From a virus (Duplodnaviria; Heunggongvirae; Uroviricota; Caudoviricetes): 11,897 bases of DNA. Location: IMG/VR virus record IMGVR_UViG_2740892230_000013; one strand, given 5' to 3'. The position numbers were made by a program, and so were the translations under genes. The notes under the pieces are model-generated. The model was not told the DNA's origin and searched no databases. It saw only the letters and a program-made list of their open reading frames with translations. This document shows positions 3,085-11,822 of the stretch, piece after piece (position 1 is the stretch's first letter; the number at the start of each line of letters is the position of its first letter).

Positions 3085-3435
3085 ATGAAAAAAAACGCTA
3101 ATAATCCATACTCCAAATTTCGTAATGGCGTAGAACGCCATGTACACCACGTCGCTACCAGTGCATCACGTAGTAACAGTCGCTATAACCTGAACGAGAC
3201 GCACGCAACACCGGATGGCCACGCTGTAAAACAAATCGGCGAGCATGCCTGGCTGATTGAGAAAGCTGGAATCGTGGTCCACAAATGCCCACGCAATCCG
3301 TTTACTGGAAACCGCATTTTTGCTCTAAGCAGCGGCGACAATCAGTTCGGGCAGGATTTCACATTATACGAAGCACTACGCACGGTTGATCGTCTGCTTC
3401 GCGGACAAAGTTTTATTAAACAGGCTGATTTATAA
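3085..3435 (+). CDS. Hypothetical protein
   Basis: 116-aa ORF in the early operon with no recognisable motif. Coding-like composition. Weak RBS. Confidence 0.5.
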   Translation: MKKNANNPYSKFRNGVERHVHHVATSASRSNSRYNLNETHATPDGHAVKQIGEHAWLIEKAGIVVHKCPRNPFTGNRIFALSSGDNQFGQDFTLYEALRTVDRLLRGQSFIKQADL

Positions 3436-3445
3436 CAGGTGCTTT

Positions 3446-3722
3446 ATGACCAAAGAGCATGCACAAGGTGTATTTATCCGTTTTATTGATTTTCGCGGTG
3501 AACTGTTATTACGCGCATCAGCCATTGACGTAGTTGTTCCATCCGAAAAAAACGCAGCTACTTACGTTTATCTGAACGGTACGCGCCTGACTGTGGAGCT
3601 TCCGTACCAGACCGTACGAGAAATCATTAGCGAAGCTGAAAAGGCACGTCAGGTTAATGGCGATGAACCCTATATCGAAATTATTTGTATGGATTCAGAA
3701 GCTGAAATTCAGAAAGCAGATT
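3446..3722 (+). CDS. Hypothetical protein (92 aa; 3' end and stop lost to the N-gap at 3723-3732, with a second diverged partial copy at 3733-3946)
   Basis: ATG at 3446 with an AGGTG RBS 5 nt upstream. The post-gap segment re-encodes residues from about AID... to ...EIQKAD followed by TAA at 3944-3946, with a few substitutions. This is a variant copy, not a fused 186-aa protein. Confidence 0.55.
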
Positions 3723-3957
3723 NNNNNNNNNNCGCTATTGATGGAGTGGCTCCGGCGGGTAAAAACGGAGCCGACGAAGCCACTTACGTTTATCTGAACG
3801 GCACGCGACTGCTTGTGGAACTTCCGTACCAGACCGTACGAGAAATCATTAGCAAAGCTGAAAAAGCGCGCCAGGCTAATGGCAATGAACCCTATATCGA
3901 AATTATTTGCATGGATTCAGAAGCTGAAATTCAGAAAGCAGATTAAAGGGCGTTGTG

Positions 3958-4601: not shown

Positions 4602-4708
4602 CCATTCTGNNNNNNNNNNTATCACATCTATCTCACTGACGGCACTTACTTTTGCGCCACCAACGTGGTGCAGGTAAATCTTATCAGACAGGTACAGGAG
4701 TCACGCAG

Positions 4709-5250: not shown

Positions 5251-5373
5251 GAAACCAGAACATGCACACACAAAAAAACCGCTTGCCATGCCGCAATCAG
5301 TCAGGTTACATTTCCGCTGCACCTCACAAAACGGGTGCCGGGTTTCGCAGCCTGCTGACTACACAAGCGCACA

Positions 5374-5393
5374 ACCGCGCCAGCGGTTTTTTT
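5374..5393 (+). terminator. Short intrinsic-terminator-like hairpin (ACCGC-GCCA-GCGGT followed by a 7-T run)
   Basis: 5-bp GC-rich stem, 4-nt loop and a T7 tract on the + strand, inside an ORF-poor stretch between the early small genes and the replication genes. Confidence 0.35.
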
Positions 5394-5448
5394 GTGCGTA
5401 CTGTATTGCCACGTTTTTTTCGCGTCAGAATTATGGCGGGGCGTACGG

Positions 5449-5467
5449 GGCCGACTTCGGTCGGGCC
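5449..5467 (+). other. Stable stem-loop with a UUCG tetraloop (GGCCGAC-TTCG-GTCGGGCC)
   Basis: Direct inspection: CCGAC/GTCGG stem closing a TTCG loop, extended by flanking G/C pairs. Lies in a region without a credible ORF. Confidence 0.35.
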
Positions 5468-5572
5468 GGGTTCTTGTGTAGCCGGTACTGCGAACCTCGT
5501 ACGTCTCGCCACCCACAGTTTCGCAGCTCTGGATGGTGAGTTTTCACAACTTACTACACAAGGGGCCACACC

Positions 5573-5803
5573 ATGGCAAACCGCAAACCACACCGCGCTA
5601 TCGCGGAGCGTCGTCACATCCAGACTGAAATCAACCGCAGACTTTCCCGCGCATCACGCGTCGCGCAAATCATGCACATCAATATGCTGCATGAGCACAG
5701 CCACGCACTATCAAACATTTATTCCGCCTCTGTTTTCAGCTATCTGGCGGATGATCTGCACGAGCTTCAACAGCTCATCCAGCAGCAAAACAAACTCCAT
5801 TAA
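5573..5803 (+). CDS. Putative small basic protein
   Basis: 76-aa ORF. ATG preceded by AAGGGG about 7 nt upstream. Codon usage looks host-like. Basic N-terminus, Q-rich C-terminus. No recognisable family. Confidence 0.4.
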   Translation: MANRKPHRAIAERRHIQTEINRRLSRASRVAQIMHINMLHEHSHALSNIYSASVFSYLADDLHELQQLIQQQNKLH

Positions 5804-5875: not shown

Positions 5876-6265
5876 ATGATTGACCGTCACGACTTCGTAA
5901 AATGGGTGCGCACACAGGACACCCGTCTGGCCCCAAAACTTCAGGCAATGTTTGATTTTTATCTCCGTGCCCGCGCCAGCCGGGCACGCACCACAAAACC
6001 GGAGAACGCAGACACCCTTTATTTCACCGTGGACGACTGTTACCGCGTAGCCTTCACGCCACAAGGTCTGGCCCTGTACACCCTGACACCACACGGCGAC
6101 TCCCTGCTGGCGTATTACAACTCCCCGGCCTCCGTATTTGCGGCAATGCTGGCGCATCGTACCGCTGGCGGGTGTGCCTCGCTGAGTGAATACACCACTG
6201 AATTTAACCGCCTTTCCGTCATCTTCTCGCAGGAGTGGCAGCGCGTGACGGGATACCAGCCATGA
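5876..6265 (+). CDS. Hypothetical protein translationally coupled to the replication initiator
   Basis: 129-aa ORF. Its TGA at 6263-6265 overlaps the ATG (6262) of the downstream gene A-like ORF. Confidence 0.6.
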   Translation: MIDRHDFVKWVRTQDTRLAPKLQAMFDFYLRARASRARTTKPENADTLYFTVDDCYRVAFTPQGLALYTLTPHGDSLLAYYNSPASVFAAMLAHRTAGGCASLSEYTTEFNRLSVIFSQEWQRVTGYQP

Positions 6266-9200
6266 GTGAGTTTGCATGGAGCTGGAATGAACCGCAGCCA
6301 GCTATTGATCCGGACGACTTCGCGAACTTCAGCCAGTTGCCAAAAACCGGACTGCAACGCGCCATTCGTTACTACTATGAGGCGGACAAAAAGGCTCAGG
6401 AAGAACAGGATGCGAAGGAAGAAGCCTTTTTCGCACAATCCGCCATGGGTAAAAAACTCATGGCATCCCTTGAGGAAGCCGGGCAACGCGAAAAACTGAT
6501 AAAAAACATCATCAGTAAGCGCCAGGAAATAAAGCAAGACCCGGTGGCCTGCGCCTTTGCCGAACTGAAGGCACTTCCCGTTTATCTGCGAGACCCCCTG
6601 AGCCGCCGCCTCTCTTTTTTACGTAAGAAGCAGGAATCTGACCGCCAGAAAGGAAAAAACGCCAGGCTGGCAGAACGCTATGCACAAGGAACCCTGCTCA
6701 AAATATTCAAACGTCTGAAACGCACTGACGGACGCTGGCTGACACCGTGTTATTGCTCCCTTGCCGGACGCGAACGCCTGGACGATTTGCTTTACCTGCC
6801 GCAGCTCAACAAACACCAGATACAGACGCTGGCCACCATGACGGCGGCGATGTTCAGCAGCACTTTTGAAACACTCTGCGATAACTTTGGCGCGACCGAT
6901 GGCGAGCTGACCATGAAAATTGCGCTGAAGGCGTATCAGATGCTGGCCCGCATGGCGTTACATCTGCACACCATGCCGCCGCATTACGAAGCACTGAGAA
7001 CGGACAAAGACCGGAAGAACGCACCGAATACGGAGCTGCTGCCGGGTGCCATCCTTCGCCTGACCTGTGCGGAATGGTGGAAACACAAACTGTGGCTTTT
7101 ACGTTGCGAGTGGCGGGAAGAACAACTCCGTGCCGCCTGTCTGGTTTCCAGAAAAACATCACCCTATCTGAGCCAGGACGCGTTAAGCGAGTTTCGCGCA
7201 CAGCGCGAGAAAACACGCGATTTCCTGAAAAGTTTCATGCTGGAAAATGAAGACGGGTTCACGATTGATCTCGAGACGGTGTATTACGCGGGAGTAAGTA
7301 ACCCGGTTCACCGTAAGGCAGAAATGATGGCCACCATGAAGGGGCTGGAACTTCTGGCCGAAGCCCGTGGCGACAAAGCGGTGTTTCTGACTGTCACCTG
7401 CCCGTCAAAATACCACGCCACAACGGAGAACGGTCATCCGAATCCCAAATGGAACGGGGCCACAATGCGCGACTCCAGCGATTACCTGGTTAACACGTTT
7501 TTTGCGGCGGTCCGCAAAAAACTGAACCGCGACGACCTGCGCTGGTATGGCATCCGCACGGTGGAGCCTCATCATGACGGCACCGTGCACTGGCATATGA
7601 TGGTCTTTGCACATCCGGAAGAAATCGACACCATTGTGTCCCATACCCGCGATATTGCCATTCAGGAAGACCGCCACGAGCTGGGCAATGATATTACTCC
7701 GCGCTTTAAGGTGGAGTATGTCGACGGCTCAAAAGGCACGCCAACCAGCTACATCGCCACCTACATCGGAAAGAACCTGGACAGCCGCGCCGTGGATGGC
7801 ATCGACCCGAAAACGGACAAGCCACGCGTGGACCACGAAACCGGAAAATCAATGGCCGAGAGCGTGGAACGCGCCATCGGCTGGGCGCGTCTTCACCGCG
7901 TCCGCCAGTTCCAGTTCTTTGGTATCCCCTCCCGTCAGGTGTGGCGTGAACTGCGCCGCCTTGCCAGCCAGATGGCACGCAACCCGGAAGGCCCGCAACG
8001 GCTGAAGGATGACGCAATGGACGCGGTACTCGCTGCCGCTGATGCCGGATGTTTTGCCACCTACATTGAGAAACAGGGTGGCGNNNNNNNNNNATGGCGT
8101 GAACTCCGCCGCCTTGCCAGTCAGATGGCCCGCAACCCGGAAGGTCCACAACGTCTGGAAAATGACGCAATGGATGCGGTACTCGCTGCCGCTGATGCCG
8201 GGTGTTTTGCCACCTACATTGAGAAACAGGGTGGCGTACTTGTTCCACGCAAAGACTACCTGATTCGCACCGCCTACGACCTCGCAGATGAGCTGAACGA
8301 TTACGGTGAACAGAGCGTACAGATTTACGGGATCTGGTCGCCGCTCATTGGGGAGTCTTCCCGCGTATGCACGCATCCGGATAACTGGAAGCTGGTAAGA
8401 CGCAAACCGGAAGCGGAAGACAGCGCCCGCGAAAATGNNNNNNNNNNAGAGCTGAACGATTACGGCGAGCAAAGCGTACAGATTTACGGGATCTGGTCGC
8501 CACAAATCGGGGAATCTTCCCGCGTGTGCACACACCCGGATAACTGGAAGCTGGTAAGACGTAAACCGGAAGCGGAAGACAGCGCCCGCGAAAATGGTTT
8601 TGACCTTCAGGGCGGCCCTGCCGCCCCTTGGACTCGTGGCAATAACTGTCCCCGTGTACAGGAAACAGACAACAACGGGACAGAACAGCCGGAAGAACGA
8701 CCAACATCGTGGCTGCAGCTCCCTGACGGCGTTGAAGTGAACGAATGGATGCGCTCACTGAAACGGCACGAACGCCGGGCGCTGATGCGTTCGCTTCGTG
8801 ACAAACAGGCAAAAAACAGCAGNNNNNNNNNNGGACAACAACGGGACAGAACAGCCGGAAGAACGGCCAGCACCGTGGCCGCAGCTCCCTGACGGCGTTG
8901 AAGTGAACGAATGGNNNNNNNNNNTGATGAAGCGCAGAGCTGGACACAGAGCCGCAAACAGCAGCGGCCTTTGCCTGATAACCACGAATTACTCGCTAAA
9001 GAATGGCGGGAGTCTGCTGAATNNNNNNNNNNCGATGAAATGCAGAGCTGGACACAGAGCCGCAAACAGCCGCGGCCTTTGCCTGATAACCACGAGTTAC
9101 TCGCTAAAGAATGGCGGGAGTCTGCTGAATCTCTCGGCCTGCATATCGGTGAACAACAGATGCAGCACCTGTTACGGGGCGGCAGTCTGTACGTTGACGG

Positions 9201-9624
9201 CAGCATCATTGCACCGCAGGGATTTGAAATTGTACGCAAACCGGATACCCGCCTGGACAGCCGAATCACGCAGCTCTGGCAGCGCCTGAGCCGTAATCAT
9301 GGCGTAAGCAGCACGGAGATCCGCCATAACCCGGTCGCCAGCTATCTGGCACAGCTGGGGGCATCAGACCCTGAAGCCGCCGCACGCCTGGCATCCACAC
9401 TTCAGCAGGACCAGAACACCATGAAAACACCCGTTACCGTGCTTTCTGACATGCTGCGCGCCATCCGCGACGCAGAGCACGCACAGAGAATCAGTGAAAC
9501 CACTGAACGCGCCCGCCGCAAAGCAGACCTGCTGCGGAGTGGCCTGACCAGTGGAAACAAAAAACAGACAGAAACGGGATTCACAAATCCCGTAAATGAG
9601 CAAAAAACGCGCCAAAAAACATGA
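6262..9624 (+). CDS. A: Rolling-circle replication initiator (P2 gene A-type endonuclease), interrupted by five N-gaps with duplicated variant segments
   Basis: HUH motif VEPHHDGTVHWHMMVF (7561-7608) and twin-tyrosine motif SYIATYIGKN (7744-7773), the hallmarks of the phiX174/P2-A family of rolling-circle initiators. Further matches to P2 gpA recalled from memory (FFGIPSRQVWRELRRL, DAGCFATYIEKQGG). ATG 6262 preferred over GTG 6235. The frame continues across the gaps at 8084-8093, 8438-8447, 8823-8832, 8915-8924 and 9023-9032 because each is followed by a re-started overlapping copy. True length cannot be determined. Confidence 0.85.
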
Positions 9625-9665
9625 AGTGCGCACAAAACAGGCAAAAGCGGGATTTCAGAATCCCG
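9575..9665. promoter_or_regulatory. Twin 18-bp palindromes (CGGGATT-N4-AATCCCG) upstream of parM; candidate ParR-binding centromere/operator
   Basis: Perfect palindromes at 9575-9592 (CGGGATTCACAAATCCCG) and 9648-9665 (CGGGATTTCAGAATCCCG), each followed by TAAA. Centres are 73 bp apart. The first lies in the last codons of gene A, the second in the A-parM intergenic region. Neither is followed by a T-tract, so they are not classic terminators. Confidence 0.45.
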
Positions 9666-9943
9666 TAAACGATTAATTAATCAACATAAGGAAAACCGAC
9701 ATGAAAATTTACATCGACGACGGCTCCACCAACATCAAGCTGGCATNNNNNNNNNNAGCCGCAAAGCAGACCTGCTGCGGGGTGGCCTAACCAGTGGAAA
9801 CAAAAAACAGACAGAAACGGGACTCACAAATCCCGTAAATGAGCAAAAAACGCGCCGCGATATATGAAGCGCGCACAAAACAGGCAAAAGCGGGATTTCA
9901 GAATCCTGTAACCGATTAATTAATCAACATAAGGAAAAGCGAC

Positions 9944-11000
9944 ATGAAAATTTGTATCGACGACGGCTCCACCAACATCAAGCTGGCATNNNNNNNNNNT
10001 GTAATCGCCATTCACCACGCGCTGGTCAAATCAGGCATCACACCACAGGAGGTGGATGTGGTTGTCACCCTGCCACNNNNNNNNNNGGACCGAGAGCGGC
10101 GAACGCCGCAACGCCATCAGCCCGAACAGCTTCAAGTCGGAATGGTCTGCGCCGTTCGGTGGCACACAGCCCGCGAACTACATGCTTGATGGCGTGCGCT
10201 ATGGTTTTGATCCGGTCAGCGATCGCTTTGTCCAGACGACCGACACGCAATACCAGTACAGCGATGTGAACGTAATTGCCATTCATCACGCGCTAGTCAA
10301 ATCAGGCATCACGCCACAGGAGGTGGATGTGGTTGTCACCCTGCCACTGAGCGAATATTTCGACACAAACGCACAGCCGGACATGGCCAACATCAACCGC
10401 AAAAAAGCGAACGTCATGCGCCCGGTGGAGTGCCAGAACGGTGAGGCATTCACTATCCGTAACGTGCGGGTTATGCCTGAATCCATTCCGGCTGGCTTTA
10501 AAGCACTGGCTGACATGAGTCCGTTTGAATCCCTGCTGATTGTGGATTTGGGCGGAACCACGCTGGATGTGGCAAAGGTTCAGGGACAACTGGCAGGTAT
10601 CAGCCAGGTATTTTGCGATCCACACGTAGGCGTTTCCCTGATGGCCGATGCCGTACTGTCGGTGATGGCCACTAACGGTATGCGTACCAGTCACCACATC
10701 GCCAATACCATTATCGAACATCGCCATGATGAAGCCTGGCTGCGCCAGCACATCCACAATGACGCGCATTACGCCAGCCTGATGGCGGTTATTCGTGAAA
10801 AGGAAGAAACACTGAAACAACGCGTGATCCGCGCGCTGGCGGGTTTTTCGGGTTACGGGCGGGTGATGGTTGTCGGTGGCGGGGCGGAGATTGTGGCACC
10901 CGCTATCCGCGAAGCCTGCGGAGTTAATGCGACTTTCATCGCGGACGGGGTGCCACAGTTTGCTCTGGTTAATGGGCTGTACGCAATGGACAAGGAGTAA
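9944..11000 (+). CDS. parM: ParM/StbA-like actin-fold partition ATPase (composite across N-gaps; an alternative start copy is at 9701-9746)
   Basis: N-terminus MKI(Y/C)IDDGSTNIKLA. Internal matches to plasmid R1 ParM recalled from memory (ISPNSFK, YSDVNVIAIHHALVKSGI, VMPESIPAG, DLGGTTLDV, VVGGGAEI, LVNGLYAMDKE). GGA RBS 8 nt upstream of both start copies. 10000-10076 is a misplaced variant copy of 10272-10337. Confidence 0.85.
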
Positions 11001-11004
11001 ACCA

Positions 11005-11316
11005 ATGACGACACCAACCAGACGGATAAGTTACTATCTGAAGCCCGCCGCCGTCAAGAACGAAGGCGAAGCATGCGCATGGCTGGACAGCCTTACACCA
11101 GAAGCCCGCAAAAGCGGCCAACGCGTGGCTTTTCTGGCCGGGCTGGCACTTCTGAAAATGAATCCAGCAGAGGCTTACCGACTGGCTGCATGGGCTGACG
11201 ATGAGGCGTTATCAGTGACACAAACCAGGATAGAATGCCCCGCGTCACAGCCAGTATCAACCGCACAGATAACCAGTCAGATGGCCGGAAATATCCGGGC
11301 GTTATTTCCCGAATAA
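11005..11316 (+). CDS. parR: ParR/StbB-like centromere-binding adaptor
   Basis: 103-aa ORF 4 bp after the parM stop, with an AAGGAG RBS 7 nt upstream. Pattern RRISYYLKP...LDSLTPE...RVAFLAGLALL...IRALFPE parallels R1 ParR (RRTIAFKLNP...LDSIPQGE...RAALTAGLAL...LRSLFPKE) as recalled from memory. Confidence 0.7.
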   Translation: MTTPTRRISYYLKPAAVKNEGEACAWLDSLTPEARKSGQRVAFLAGLALLKMNPAEAYRLAAWADDEALSVTQTRIECPASQPVSTAQITSQMAGNIRALFPE

Positions 11317-11323
11317 CACAACA

Positions 11324-11350
11324 TCAGGGCGCATCCGCCCTGATGACTTT
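11324..11350 (+). terminator. Putative terminator hairpin after parR (TCAGGGCG-CATC-CGCCCTGA)
   Basis: Perfect 8-bp GC-rich stem with a 4-nt loop immediately after the parR stop. The downstream T-tract is weak. Confidence 0.45.
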
Positions 11351-11414: not shown

Positions 11415-11822
11415 ATGAACAGAAAACAGAAACAAGAGTTGAAATACTTCTTACGTAAAGAAATTGCCAGGCTTGAAGATGCAGAGTCACAATCATCAGA
11501 AATTCCGTTCGGAATGGATATCAACGACGCCCGTATGCTTCAGGCATACCGTATAGCTCAGGCTGCACTACAGACAAAACCGTTAAATAACATACATGAA
11601 AAGTATGATTATTTTACGGATACCGCTTGCTTGCTGACATCTGAAGAACAAAAGATAGCCCAACTTTTAGGCGACGCATGGAACCTGTATTTAACATTGC
11701 CAGTTGAGCATCCAATGGGTAGAGATGAATTTTGCCGGGCAATTCATCATTGCCAAAATATGGTGTTGGCACGCCCGGCCATCAGGGCGCTGGCCAGGAA
11801 GGGGCAAGGCTATAAAAGATAA
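11415..11822 (+). CDS. Hypothetical protein (AT-rich cargo gene)
   Basis: 135-aa ORF in a visibly AT-richer segment. Preceded by a 12-codon uORF (11380-11418) whose stop overlaps this ATG. Followed directly by a strong intrinsic terminator. No recognisable family. Confidence 0.6.
   Translation: MNRKQKQELKYFLRKEIARLEDAESQSSEIPFGMDINDARMLQAYRIAQAALQTKPLNNIHEKYDYFTDTACLLTSEEQKIAQLLGDAWNLYLTLPVEHPMGRDEFCRAIHHCQNMVLARPAIRALARKGQGYKR

Follow-up and report, generated by a model that had tools for sequence, protein, structure and literature searches.

Partitioning genes are already on record in P2-like phages. About one quarter of the P2-like phages of Escherichia coli carry a putative plasmid partitioning system between gpA and gpQ, a region that is a defence hotspot, and plasmid maintenance of these phages has been suggested as a possible reason (Rousset et al. 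2022, PMC9122126). The presence of ParMR at this locus is thus known from the literature, and also from RefSeq annotation and PHROGs, which has families for both ParM and ParR. [quoted passage not shown] SrpMRC stabilises R391, reducing loss of the element, and its centromere srpC is small, with four 13-bp repeats only; once excised, the SXT/R391 element replicates through the relaxase TraI acting at oriT. The AlpAC adaptor of prophage CGP3 of Corynebacterium glutamicum binds sites in its own upstream promoter region, and both genes of this pair are induced early after excision and needed for efficient replication of circular CGP3 DNA.

The window analysed here, an 11,897-nucleotide viral sequence (IMG/VR record IMGVR_UViG_2740892230_000013), consists of scaffolded sequence interrupted by ten gaps of 10 N each, some of which are flanked by near-identical allelic pieces, and it encodes an integrase. 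Its P2-type replication gene A (6235..9624, + strand), which encodes an HUH rolling-circle initiator (Phage_GPA, 4.4e-130 on 6235-8082), is fragmented by N gaps and by repeated allelic pieces; the intact homologue in prophage L001 has 946 aa. The start of parM follows the gene A stop codon after 76 nt, so that the partition genes do lie directly downstream of the initiator, as the preliminary description stated. The first 15 codons of parM and one further base (9701..9746, + strand, allele 1) are followed by an allelic duplicate of 9514-9746 (9757..9989, + strand) that comprises the gene A 3' end, two palindromes described below and the parM 5' end (9944-9989); by a duplicate parM fragment with N gaps on both sides (10000..10076, + strand), which matches 10272-10348 as read from the sequence; and by the main body of the gene, codons 16-319 and the stop codon (10087..11000, + strand). 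Upon alignment, 9757-9989 and 9514-9746 have 93% mean column identity and share the same last base before the N gap, and intact loci have a single copy of this region; the repeat is a scaffolding artefact and not a biological duplication. Joined together, 9701-9746 and 10087-11000 make exactly 960 nt, an open reading frame of 319 codons plus a stop.

The reconstructed ParM is identical to that of the intact prophage L001 at 316 of 319 positions, and the ParR proteins of the window and of L001/P88-type phages likewise differ by 3 aa. ParM matches StbA_N (8e-70) and the ParM C-terminal domain (1e-68) in Pfam, and it aligns over its full length (residues 2-316) with R1 ParM structures (1mwk and others, E 9e-93). 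The DDGST, PES, DLGGTT and GGGAE stretches of R1 ParM, which we take to be the nucleotide-binding and catalytic motifs, are all retained in the alignment with 1mwk and in the reconstructed protein, within the longer conserved stretches IDDGSTNIK, MPESIPAG, DLGGTTLD and GGGAE. By these matches, the ParM of the window is an intact, full-length actin-like ATPase of the R1 family with its nucleotide-binding motifs in place. The gene is under purifying selection, because dN/dS is 0.02-0.12 across intact alleles.

Four nucleotides after the parM stop codon begins parR (11005..11316, + strand), encoding a 103-aa adaptor (PF10784, 1.3e-23; phrog_2515, 1.5e-57) that is 33% identical to an IncF plasmid ParR (E 5e-8), with the identity falling in the N-terminal 55 aa. 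Its best PDB profile match is a weak one, to pB171 ParR (2jd3, E 0.11), and the AlphaFold2 model of the monomer has a low mean pLDDT of 57, with helices at 20-29, 32-52 and 54-61 but nothing modelled where the N-terminal strand would lie. The earlier assignment of the two open reading frames to ParM and ParR thus withstood homology search, through the Pfam, R1 structure and IncF ParR matches. Alignment divides ParR into three parts: the predicted DNA-binding N-terminus and the C-terminal tip, NIRALFPE, are conserved, and the linker joining them is hypervariable. Alleles of ParR diverge down to 54% identity alongside ParM alleles at least 92% identical, and the variation is limited to the linker: RRISFYLKP of the N-terminal part is identical in the two main allele types (L001 and L002), and the putative ParM-binding tip is almost invariant. 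The C-terminal motif NA..L[FI], near-invariant among E. coli alleles, is common to the IncF, ICE and phage ParRs compared, and ParR appears to keep both its predicted DNA-binding part and a tip homologous to the C-terminus of plasmid ParR. A perfect 10-bp hairpin (11322..11345), identified as an inverted repeat in L001 and resembling a terminator, lies between parR and the next gene and likely marks the end of the parMR unit.

Two candidate ParR sites were located by a pattern search. Site 1, CGGGATTCACAAATCCCGTAAA (9575..9596, + strand), lies inside the final codons of gene A, and site 2, CGGGATTTCAGAATCCCGTAAA (9648..9669, + strand), lies in the intergenic region between A and parM, immediately 5' of a conserved ATTAAT..CAA element and a ribosome-binding site. 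Both are palindromes of the form GGGA-N7-8-TCCC, 73 bp apart and straddling the gene A stop codon. The pattern has four matches in the window (two loci in two allelic copies, the duplicates being at 9818-9839 and 9891-9912) versus zero expected by chance, and only two matches in the 41.8 kb of L001, where iteron arrays upstream of parM are absent and there is no further copy of the palindrome. The palindromes are the same in both main ParR allele types, and the GGGA..CCC cores and their spacing of 72-73 bp are kept in Salmonella, Plesiomonas and Hafnia while the sequence in between diverges. A scan for consensus promoters between gene A and parM returned nothing at its threshold, and the ATTAAT..CAA element is only a candidate -10. 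With far fewer sites than the characterised plasmid centromeres, the two palindromes might serve as an operator only.

The window ends before any P2 structural gene; intact relatives have these genes and portal gene Q further along, Q being downstream of the cassette in L001, P88, L005, L006, L008 and L009. The place of parMR is therefore between gene A and Q, in the gpA-gpQ (tin/old) variable region of P2-like phages, and the preliminary description of an integrase-bearing P2-like element with a cassette at the post-A hotspot was correct in this respect. Its premise that ParMR is unusual in P2-type phages does not hold. Of 5426 complete E. coli genomes, 1338 (~25%) contain the cassette at 95-99% identity, nearly always in the chromosome. 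It also occurs in a dozen phage genomes on deposit, among them Citrobacter phiSM and P88, the type of the genus Xuanwuvirus; the ParM of the window is 98-100% identical to those of P88, phiSM, P884B11, 520873 and others. The immunity region and the downstream cargo of the window differ from those of L001/P88-type phages. The cassette is thus routine at the post-A position, which is one half of what the preliminary description named as a refutation; the other half, plasmid-prophage maintenance by it, is hypothetical.

An episomal state had been offered as one explanation of the cassette: ParMR would sustain a stable low-copy plasmid prophage as an alternative to integration, as raised for P2-like phages by Rousset et al. 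2022 (PMC9122126). One PLSDB record fits this idea, a 34,461-bp circular 'plasmid' (NZ_CP148288.1) that amounts to an entire P88-like phage whose ParM, ParR and 135-aa proteins are identical, and a phage 100% identical to it is chromosomal in another strain with the same Z1323 name prefix; a lone circular assembly, however, can represent an excised or replicating form caught by sequencing. Of 1955 places of the cassette in complete E. coli genomes, 1953 are chromosomal and two are on plasmid records, the integrase is kept in all inspected elements, and the annotations of P88 and L001 contain no plasmid-type replicon, gene A being the sole replication initiator in them. P88-like phages also possess hok/gef, and plasmid R1 has hok/sok as its other stability locus, but hok is equally present in integrating Stx lambdoid phages and so is uninformative as to a plasmid lifestyle; the pairing of hok and parMR as R1-type stability loci was rejected because the same hok occurs in many integrating Stx phages. 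A phage-plasmid lifestyle is accordingly considered quite unlikely, and stable maintenance as a plasmid prophage is rare at most.

The gene-A-proximal edge of the region is also usually taken up by the cassette in several P2-like phages of Enterobacterales that are more distantly related. A large protein search found ParM homologues in four further genera, with identities of 63% in Plesiomonas, 62% in Hafnia, 58% in Serratia and 54% in Enterobacter; in each of these P2-like prophages a Phage_GPA gene comes before the ParM homologue, and variable cargo and a portal gene come after it. A scan of contigs with ParM gave just three near-identical loci, in E. albertii, in Salmonella and in a contig labelled 'Vagococcus', which is probably mislabelled or contaminated. 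The contigs of three other ParM homologues (P0023, P0025 and P0027) do not extend far enough to show whether the carrier is a phage or a plasmid. Between these phages ParM (54-63% identity) is better conserved than gpA (32-57%), the portal protein (29-48%) and the terminase (39-46%). In a phylogeny with plasmid and phage homologues, such as the preliminary description had called for, phage ParMs form two subclades, each with 200/200 bootstrap support, and the ParM of the P1-like phage-plasmid D6 falls among plasmid ParMs, outside the P2-like clade; a single origin of all phage ParMs is weakly supported, the two subclades being joined in 107 of 200 replicates. The nearest plasmid ParMs are at most 52% identical, and therefore any capture was ancient. 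The G+C content of parMR (0.54-0.57) is like that of gene A, which together with the conserved place across genera and the conservation of ParM points to long residence at the post-A position. What is new here is the set of diverged homologues at that position, the purifying selection, the two-palindrome candidate centromere and the variability of the cargo 3' of parR.

Retention of the cassette is high but incomplete. Among 1437 genomes that have the same gene A 3' end, 1266 retain parMR, which is lost or replaced in ~12% of such loci; in relatives whose gene A is 95-98% identical, parMR has been truncated by a Phd/Doc insertion or swapped for an AAA ATPase and an S8 peptidase. Because such close relatives with truncated or replaced parMR exist, the cassette is dispensable for prophage carriage, and parMR as a strict core of the lineage was rejected. 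Chimeric and truncated parM alleles are common, the truncated ones making up ~22% of the catalogue (1618 versus 5663 full-length cluster members, as raw counts uncorrected for clonal sampling). These losses and broken alleles, and a centromere that is down to two sites, are what would be expected of a passenger that brings the phage no benefit, a plasmid module captured once or twice, linked to gene A and now decaying. Such a passenger would not be expected to show the low dN/dS of the intact alleles, the conservation of the cis sites and of both ParR termini, the antiquity of any capture, or a ParM that outconserves the replication and head genes of phages in four further genera, and decay of this kind is an improbable account of the cassette.

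The segment 3' of parR is the highly variable part of the region, and it includes the 135-aa open reading frame of the window (11415..11822, + strand), cargo that lies outside the partition cassette. Its product has no match in Pfam, NCBIfam or PADLOC, and its PHROG matches are weak. The proposal of the preliminary description that the filament system had been co-opted as cargo acting with this gene was not borne out: the gene accompanies parMR in ~161 of the 1338 parMR-bearing genomes (~12%), and its G+C content is 0.43 versus 0.54-0.57 for parMR. More broadly, ParMR, alone or with a downstream gene, might benefit the lysogen through exclusion, incompatibility or defence directed at related phages, P4-like satellites or plasmids with related centromeres. 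Its location within a defence hotspot, where HicAB, KAP NTPase and Phd/Doc genes, of toxin-antitoxin or defence type, adjoin it in relatives, agrees with such a role, and the divergence of ParR beside a conserved ParM could reflect selection on specificity. That divergence, however, is restricted to the linker and spares the predicted DNA-binding N-terminus and the tip; the place of parMR is fixed across genera while the adjoining cargo turns over; PADLOC defence models match none of ParM, ParR and the 135-aa protein; and the literature examined reports no anti-phage role for a ParMRC system. We regard a benefit to the lysogen as unlikely, and parMR as neither a defence system nor a partner of the 135-aa gene, either role being poorly supported.

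P2 rolling-circle replication yields monomeric circles. The reading that we favour, with about an even chance of being right, is that the R1-lineage ParMRC cassette usual at the A-proximal edge of the gpA-gpQ region in P88-like phages segregates or positions unintegrated circular phage DNA. ParR would bind both candidate palindromes, which would form a combined operator and minimal centromere, and ParM filaments would then position circular phage genomes or push them apart during extrachromosomal phases: between infection and integration, following excision, and while A drives rolling-circle replication. The effect would be less loss at cell division, or better replication and packaging. SrpMRC of SXT/R391 and AlpAC of CGP3 may be taken as precedents for such a role. 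The dispensability of parMR, its ~22% of truncated alleles and the presence of only two candidate ParR sites argue against action on transient circles, and a search of the accessible literature turned up no experiment on ParMR from a P2-like phage. A more specific possibility, to be held tentatively, is that ParMR is a device of the replication cycle and no relic of plasmid maintenance, with its two-site centromere beside gene A and its filaments separating rolling-circle monomers; the filaments might also bring a not-yet-integrated genome into both daughter cells, the efficiency of lysogenisation or the burst size might be raised, and the diversification of the ParR linker might be lineage-specific tuning.

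Integrating rolling-circle phages have long retained a plasmid-type actin segregation machine, and across five genera its ParM is better conserved than the replication and head proteins of the phages themselves. If ParMR acts on transient circles, the need of integrative elements such as SXT/R391 and CGP3 for active partition would extend to tailed phages of Gram-negative bacteria, and the two palindromes would provide for study a minimal centromere of natural origin, bound by ParR. For purposes of annotation, the gene-A-proximal 1.3 kb in about one quarter of E. coli P2-like loci should be left out of candidate defence cargo.

Among described systems, the putative partition system reported by Rousset et al. 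2022 for P2-like phages of E. coli, as in P88 and phiSM, is the same thing at the same gpA-gpQ locus, with nothing material different. ParMRC of R1 and IncF plasmids (parA/stb) resembles the present cassette in the full-length alignment of ParM (~47-52% identity), in the order of cis sites, parM and parR, in a ParR of family PF10784, and in two groups of sites flanking the region just upstream of parM, a two-cluster layout that survives in miniature in the phage. It differs in that the carrier is a low-copy theta plasmid rather than an integrated rolling-circle phage, in that the IncF locus examined (L016) has two clusters of 11-bp AAACCCA repeats instead of two palindromes, and in that ParR has 116 aa versus 103 aa here. 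Multi-copy 11-bp iteron arrays stand in place of the two palindromes in the plasmid, ICE and D6 loci compared. The D6 StbA/StbB system is also alike in having a 48% identical ParM homologue with StbB downstream, and the D6 record notes similarity to StbA of phage P88, but D6 is a true plasmid prophage with TCTCA-type iteron arrays upstream. SrpMRC is likewise an actin-type partition system in a normally integrated element, but SrpM and SrpR are distant from R1 ParMR, SrpR being without homology to known ParR, whereas the phage proteins are clearly of the R1 family, and its carrier is a conjugative element and not a phage. AlpAC shares with ParMR the combination of an actin-like protein and a DNA-binding adaptor in an integrated prophage, but it belongs to an unrelated host phylum, and the likeness considered here is one of role.

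The actin-like gene and its adaptor are almost certainly an R1-family ParM/ParR system. The main body of ParM matches the Pfam StbA_N (8e-70) and ParM C-terminal (1e-68) domains, and the full-length protein aligns with R1 ParM structures from crystallography and cryo-EM (E 9e-93, residues 2-316), retaining all of the DDGST, PES, DLGGTT and GGGAE stretches, which we take to be nucleotide-binding motifs. ParR (11005-11316, 103 aa) is assigned to PF10784 (Plasmid_stab_B, 1.3e-23) and, in its N-terminal 55 residues, shares 33% identity with the ParR of an IncF plasmid (E 5e-8); when its relatives were built into a profile, the top match in the PDB, a weak one, was pB171 ParR (2jd3, E 0.11), and an AlphaFold2 monomer model, inspected for a ribbon-helix-helix fold, was of low confidence. 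Among 32 aligned E. coli variants, the N-terminal 66 residues of ParR are conserved, with an invariant RRI.YLKP stretch, the linker (approximately residues 68-92) is hypervariable, and the C-terminal tip, NIRALFPE, hardly varies and occupies the same C-terminal position as the ParM-binding peptide of R1 ParR. The motif NA..L[FI] is common to the C-termini of window-type, IncF, ICE and other phage ParRs. The first 15 and last 8 residues are almost invariant, variation being concentrated in the linker. The protein is mosaic: where ParM identity between prophages is 92% or more, that of ParR can be as low as 54%, and parR of the E. albertii locus L002 (6965-7276) contains a recombination breakpoint.

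The window contains ten runs of exactly 10 N (3723-3732, 4610-4619, 8084-8093, 8438-8447, 8823-8832, 8915-8924, 9023-9032, 9747-9756, 9990-9999 and 10077-10086), several of which are flanked on both sides by the same sequence with a few substitutions. The segment 9514-9746, which runs from the end of gene A through the intergenic region to nucleotide 46 of parM, recurs at 9757-9989, both copies ending on the same base, and 10272-10348 recurs at 10000-10076; intact relatives have a single copy of the doubled region. Further near-identical repeats surround N runs in the interior of gene A (8100-9120) and in a 186-aa ORF (3386-3946). The repeats are allelic pieces placed end to end rather than biological duplications. 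Because the window resembles a flattened assembly graph of at least two related prophage variants, its apparent tandem duplications are artefacts. Joining 9701-9746 to 10087-11000 rebuilds a parM ORF of exactly 960 nt, whose 319-aa product differs from the intact-prophage ParM at 3 positions; thus the extent of the cassette in the preliminary description (9701-11316) was right, parM being continuous only once the artefacts are removed. The cassette was also correctly placed directly downstream of the rolling-circle initiator, a P2 gene A homologue (Phage_GPA, 4e-130) with its stop codon 76 nt before parM.

The same description had treated ParMR as unusual in P2-type phages, which it is not. 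A 1.8-kb query (parM, parR and the 135-aa gene) has matches, mostly of 95-99% identity, in 1338 of 5426 complete E. coli genomes, at 1522 chromosomal and 2 plasmid places. The top match is a complete P2-like prophage adjoining pdxB, with the order integrase, repressor, cox, early genes, gene A, ParM, ParR, small gene, portal and terminase, followed by the remaining P2 morphogenetic genes. The cassette is also present in P88 (type of the genus Xuanwuvirus), P884B11, 520873, 503458, PhiR44_2, Chuche, two vB_EcoM phages and Citrobacter phiSM, and PHROGs has families for ParM and ParR labelled 'partition protein'; the cassette is routine at this position. A 226-kb contig labelled Vagococcus sp. 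(NZ_JBQPOM010000071.1) bears a parM with 98% identity to that of the E. coli prophage, probably through contamination or a mislabelled assembly. The phiSM paper gives the gene merely as a possible fitness factor (PMC6456863), and an analysis of 18,150 gpA-gpQ loci of E. coli described a putative plasmid partitioning system at this locus in about a fourth of E. coli P2-like phages, raising the possibility that it serves their maintenance as plasmids (Rousset et al. 2022, PMC9122126). The parMR observation and the episome idea are therefore already published: the annotation is correct, and the feature is a well-represented, reported one of P88-like phages. No functional study of a P2-like phage ParMR was found in the literature searched, and the remaining interest lies in function, in a reduced two-site candidate centromere, and in a module that outlasts the adjoining cargo.

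As to whether parMR is itself cargo of a variable hotspot, the highly variable segment lies downstream of parR, and parM travels with the 3' end of gene A, the two occurring together in 1266 of 1437 E. coli genomes. The 135-aa gene (11415-11822) accompanies parMR in only about 161 of the 1338 genomes, other genes taking its place in P88 and other phages, and its G+C content is 0.43, versus 0.54-0.57 for parMR and gene A. Homologues of ParM in Plesiomonas (63% identity), Hafnia (62%), Serratia (58%) and Enterobacter (54%) all lie in the order Phage_GPA gene, ParM, ParR, variable genes (HicAB, KAP NTPase, Ogr) and portal gene. The differing cargo after gene A or parR, such as AAA ATPase and S8 peptidases in E. 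coli E06 (L013, 6023-10592), a KAP NTPase in Enterobacter (L009, 9411-10757), HicAB in Serratia (L008, 9450-10084) and Phd/Doc in UPEC132 (L012, 6161-6912), fits a gpA-gpQ defence and toxin-antitoxin hotspot; that parMR is itself a lysogen exclusion function is improbable. The module can nevertheless be lost, since in one prophage a Phd/Doc pair cuts parM after about 55 codons, in another an AAA ATPase and an S8 peptidase replace parMR, and truncated or chimeric parM alleles make up about 22% of catalogued sequences, in counts uncorrected for clonal sampling. C-terminally truncated ParMs of 188, 229 and 261 aa (555, 649 and 414 cluster members) occur in many E. coli genomes and N-termini fused to unrelated sequence in others (truncated or fused entries P0006, P0010, P0017, P0007, P0009, P0011, P0012 and P0014), showing that parM is often inactivated or else contains recombination junctions.

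Across the phages of E. coli and the four further genera, ParM has diverged less than gpA (32-57% identity), portal (29-48%) or large terminase (39-46%), and the nearest plasmid ParMs are at most 52% identical. The comparison with plasmid homologues proposed in the preliminary description yielded, by neighbour joining, two phage subclades (200/200 bootstrap each) joined in 107/200 replicates, a tree that fits one or two ancient acquisitions. Intact parM alleles have dN/dS of 0.02-0.12; the gene is under purifying selection and its position is conserved, and we doubt that parMR is a passenger without benefit.

The plasmid-like episomal state envisaged earlier fared less well. A 20-kb phage query falls at chromosomal places in 1953 of 1955 cases, the integrated state dominates for these phages, and no plasmid replicon is annotated in P88, all of which speaks against parMR supporting a stable plasmid prophage. 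On the other side stands one PLSDB record, NZ_CP148288.1, a 34,461-bp circle comprising a complete P88-like phage, its ParM, ParR and 135-aa proteins the same as those of the intact E. coli reference prophage (L001). It was deposited as a non-mobilisable 'plasmid' from an E. coli isolated from a cat, and the human isolate Z1323HEC0067, whose name shares the Z1323 prefix of the cat strain, has a 100% identical phage inserted in its chromosome (NZ_CP148378.1). The circle may represent a rare plasmid state, or else the assembler may have captured the phage during replication or after excision; a stable plasmid prophage as the role of parMR is unlikely. P88-like phages also encode a hok/gef-type toxin, its gene lying close to the end of the genome where ogr is (34928-35068 in L018, 1291-1431 in NZ_CP148288.1); it carries no weight for lifestyle, because the hok region, at about 83% identity, is also in many integrating Stx-converting lambdoid phages.

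The window also encodes a tyrosine integrase (107-1108) and a 134-aa HTH repressor (2157-2561), both on the minus strand, in a lysogeny region (107-2561) that differs from those of P88 and the reference prophage. Between integrase and repressor lie two extra leftward ORFs, a 115-aa DUF2511 protein (1114-1461) with a hydrophobic N-terminus resembling a signal peptide, and a 216-aa ORF (1491-2141) that is hydrophobic at its C-terminus and matches no Pfam family. In the early region just before gene A, Rfam matches to isrK (64 bits) and to C4 antisense RNA (83 bits) adjoin one another on the plus strand (5319-5393 and 5429-5516), in non-coding sequence that precedes a 76-aa Derepression-family ORF (5573-5803, PF25738), an arrangement that we take to resemble P1/P7 immI-type antisense-RNA control of an antirepressor.

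Upstream of parM, a 22-nt near-palindrome, CGGGAYT-N5-AATCCYGTAAA, of which 0 copies are expected by chance, occurs twice, 73 bp apart, in both the window and the reference prophage, once within the last codons of gene A and once in the intergenic region; no third copy occurs across 41.8 kb of prophage and flanking DNA. Relatives in Salmonella, Plesiomonas and Hafnia keep the GGGA and CCC cores of both sites unchanged. The sites are 72-73 bp apart in both E. coli and Plesiomonas, those of Salmonella and Hafnia align in register, and the intervening sequence has diverged; a short ATTAAT..CAA element ahead of the ribosome-binding site is also conserved. Serratia and Enterobacter relatives have at the same place a long inverted repeat with outer ends GGGAAC and GTTCCC. 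The two palindromes may be a candidate centromere, or a candidate operator only.

P2 replication from gene A gives circular monomers, the form that is also packaged; these are plasmid-like molecules that ParMRC could move. We tentatively favour, at somewhat short of even confidence, a role in which ParR would bind both palindromes and ParM filaments would act on circular phage DNA while the phage is not integrated. In an IncF plasmid, the D6 phage-plasmid, a Dickeya ICE and a Mangrovibacter integrated plasmid, the corresponding sites are 11-bp direct iterons in two clusters, whereas the phage loci have two palindromes and therefore retain the two-cluster layout upstream of parM in miniature; the srpC site of SXT/R391 elements functions with four 13-bp repeats. 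Two experimentally studied systems work in the way proposed here: SrpMRC of SXT/R391, which reduces loss of the excised element, itself replicating from oriT via a relaxase, and AlpAC of prophage CGP3, which is switched on soon after excision and without which the circular phage DNA does not replicate efficiently.
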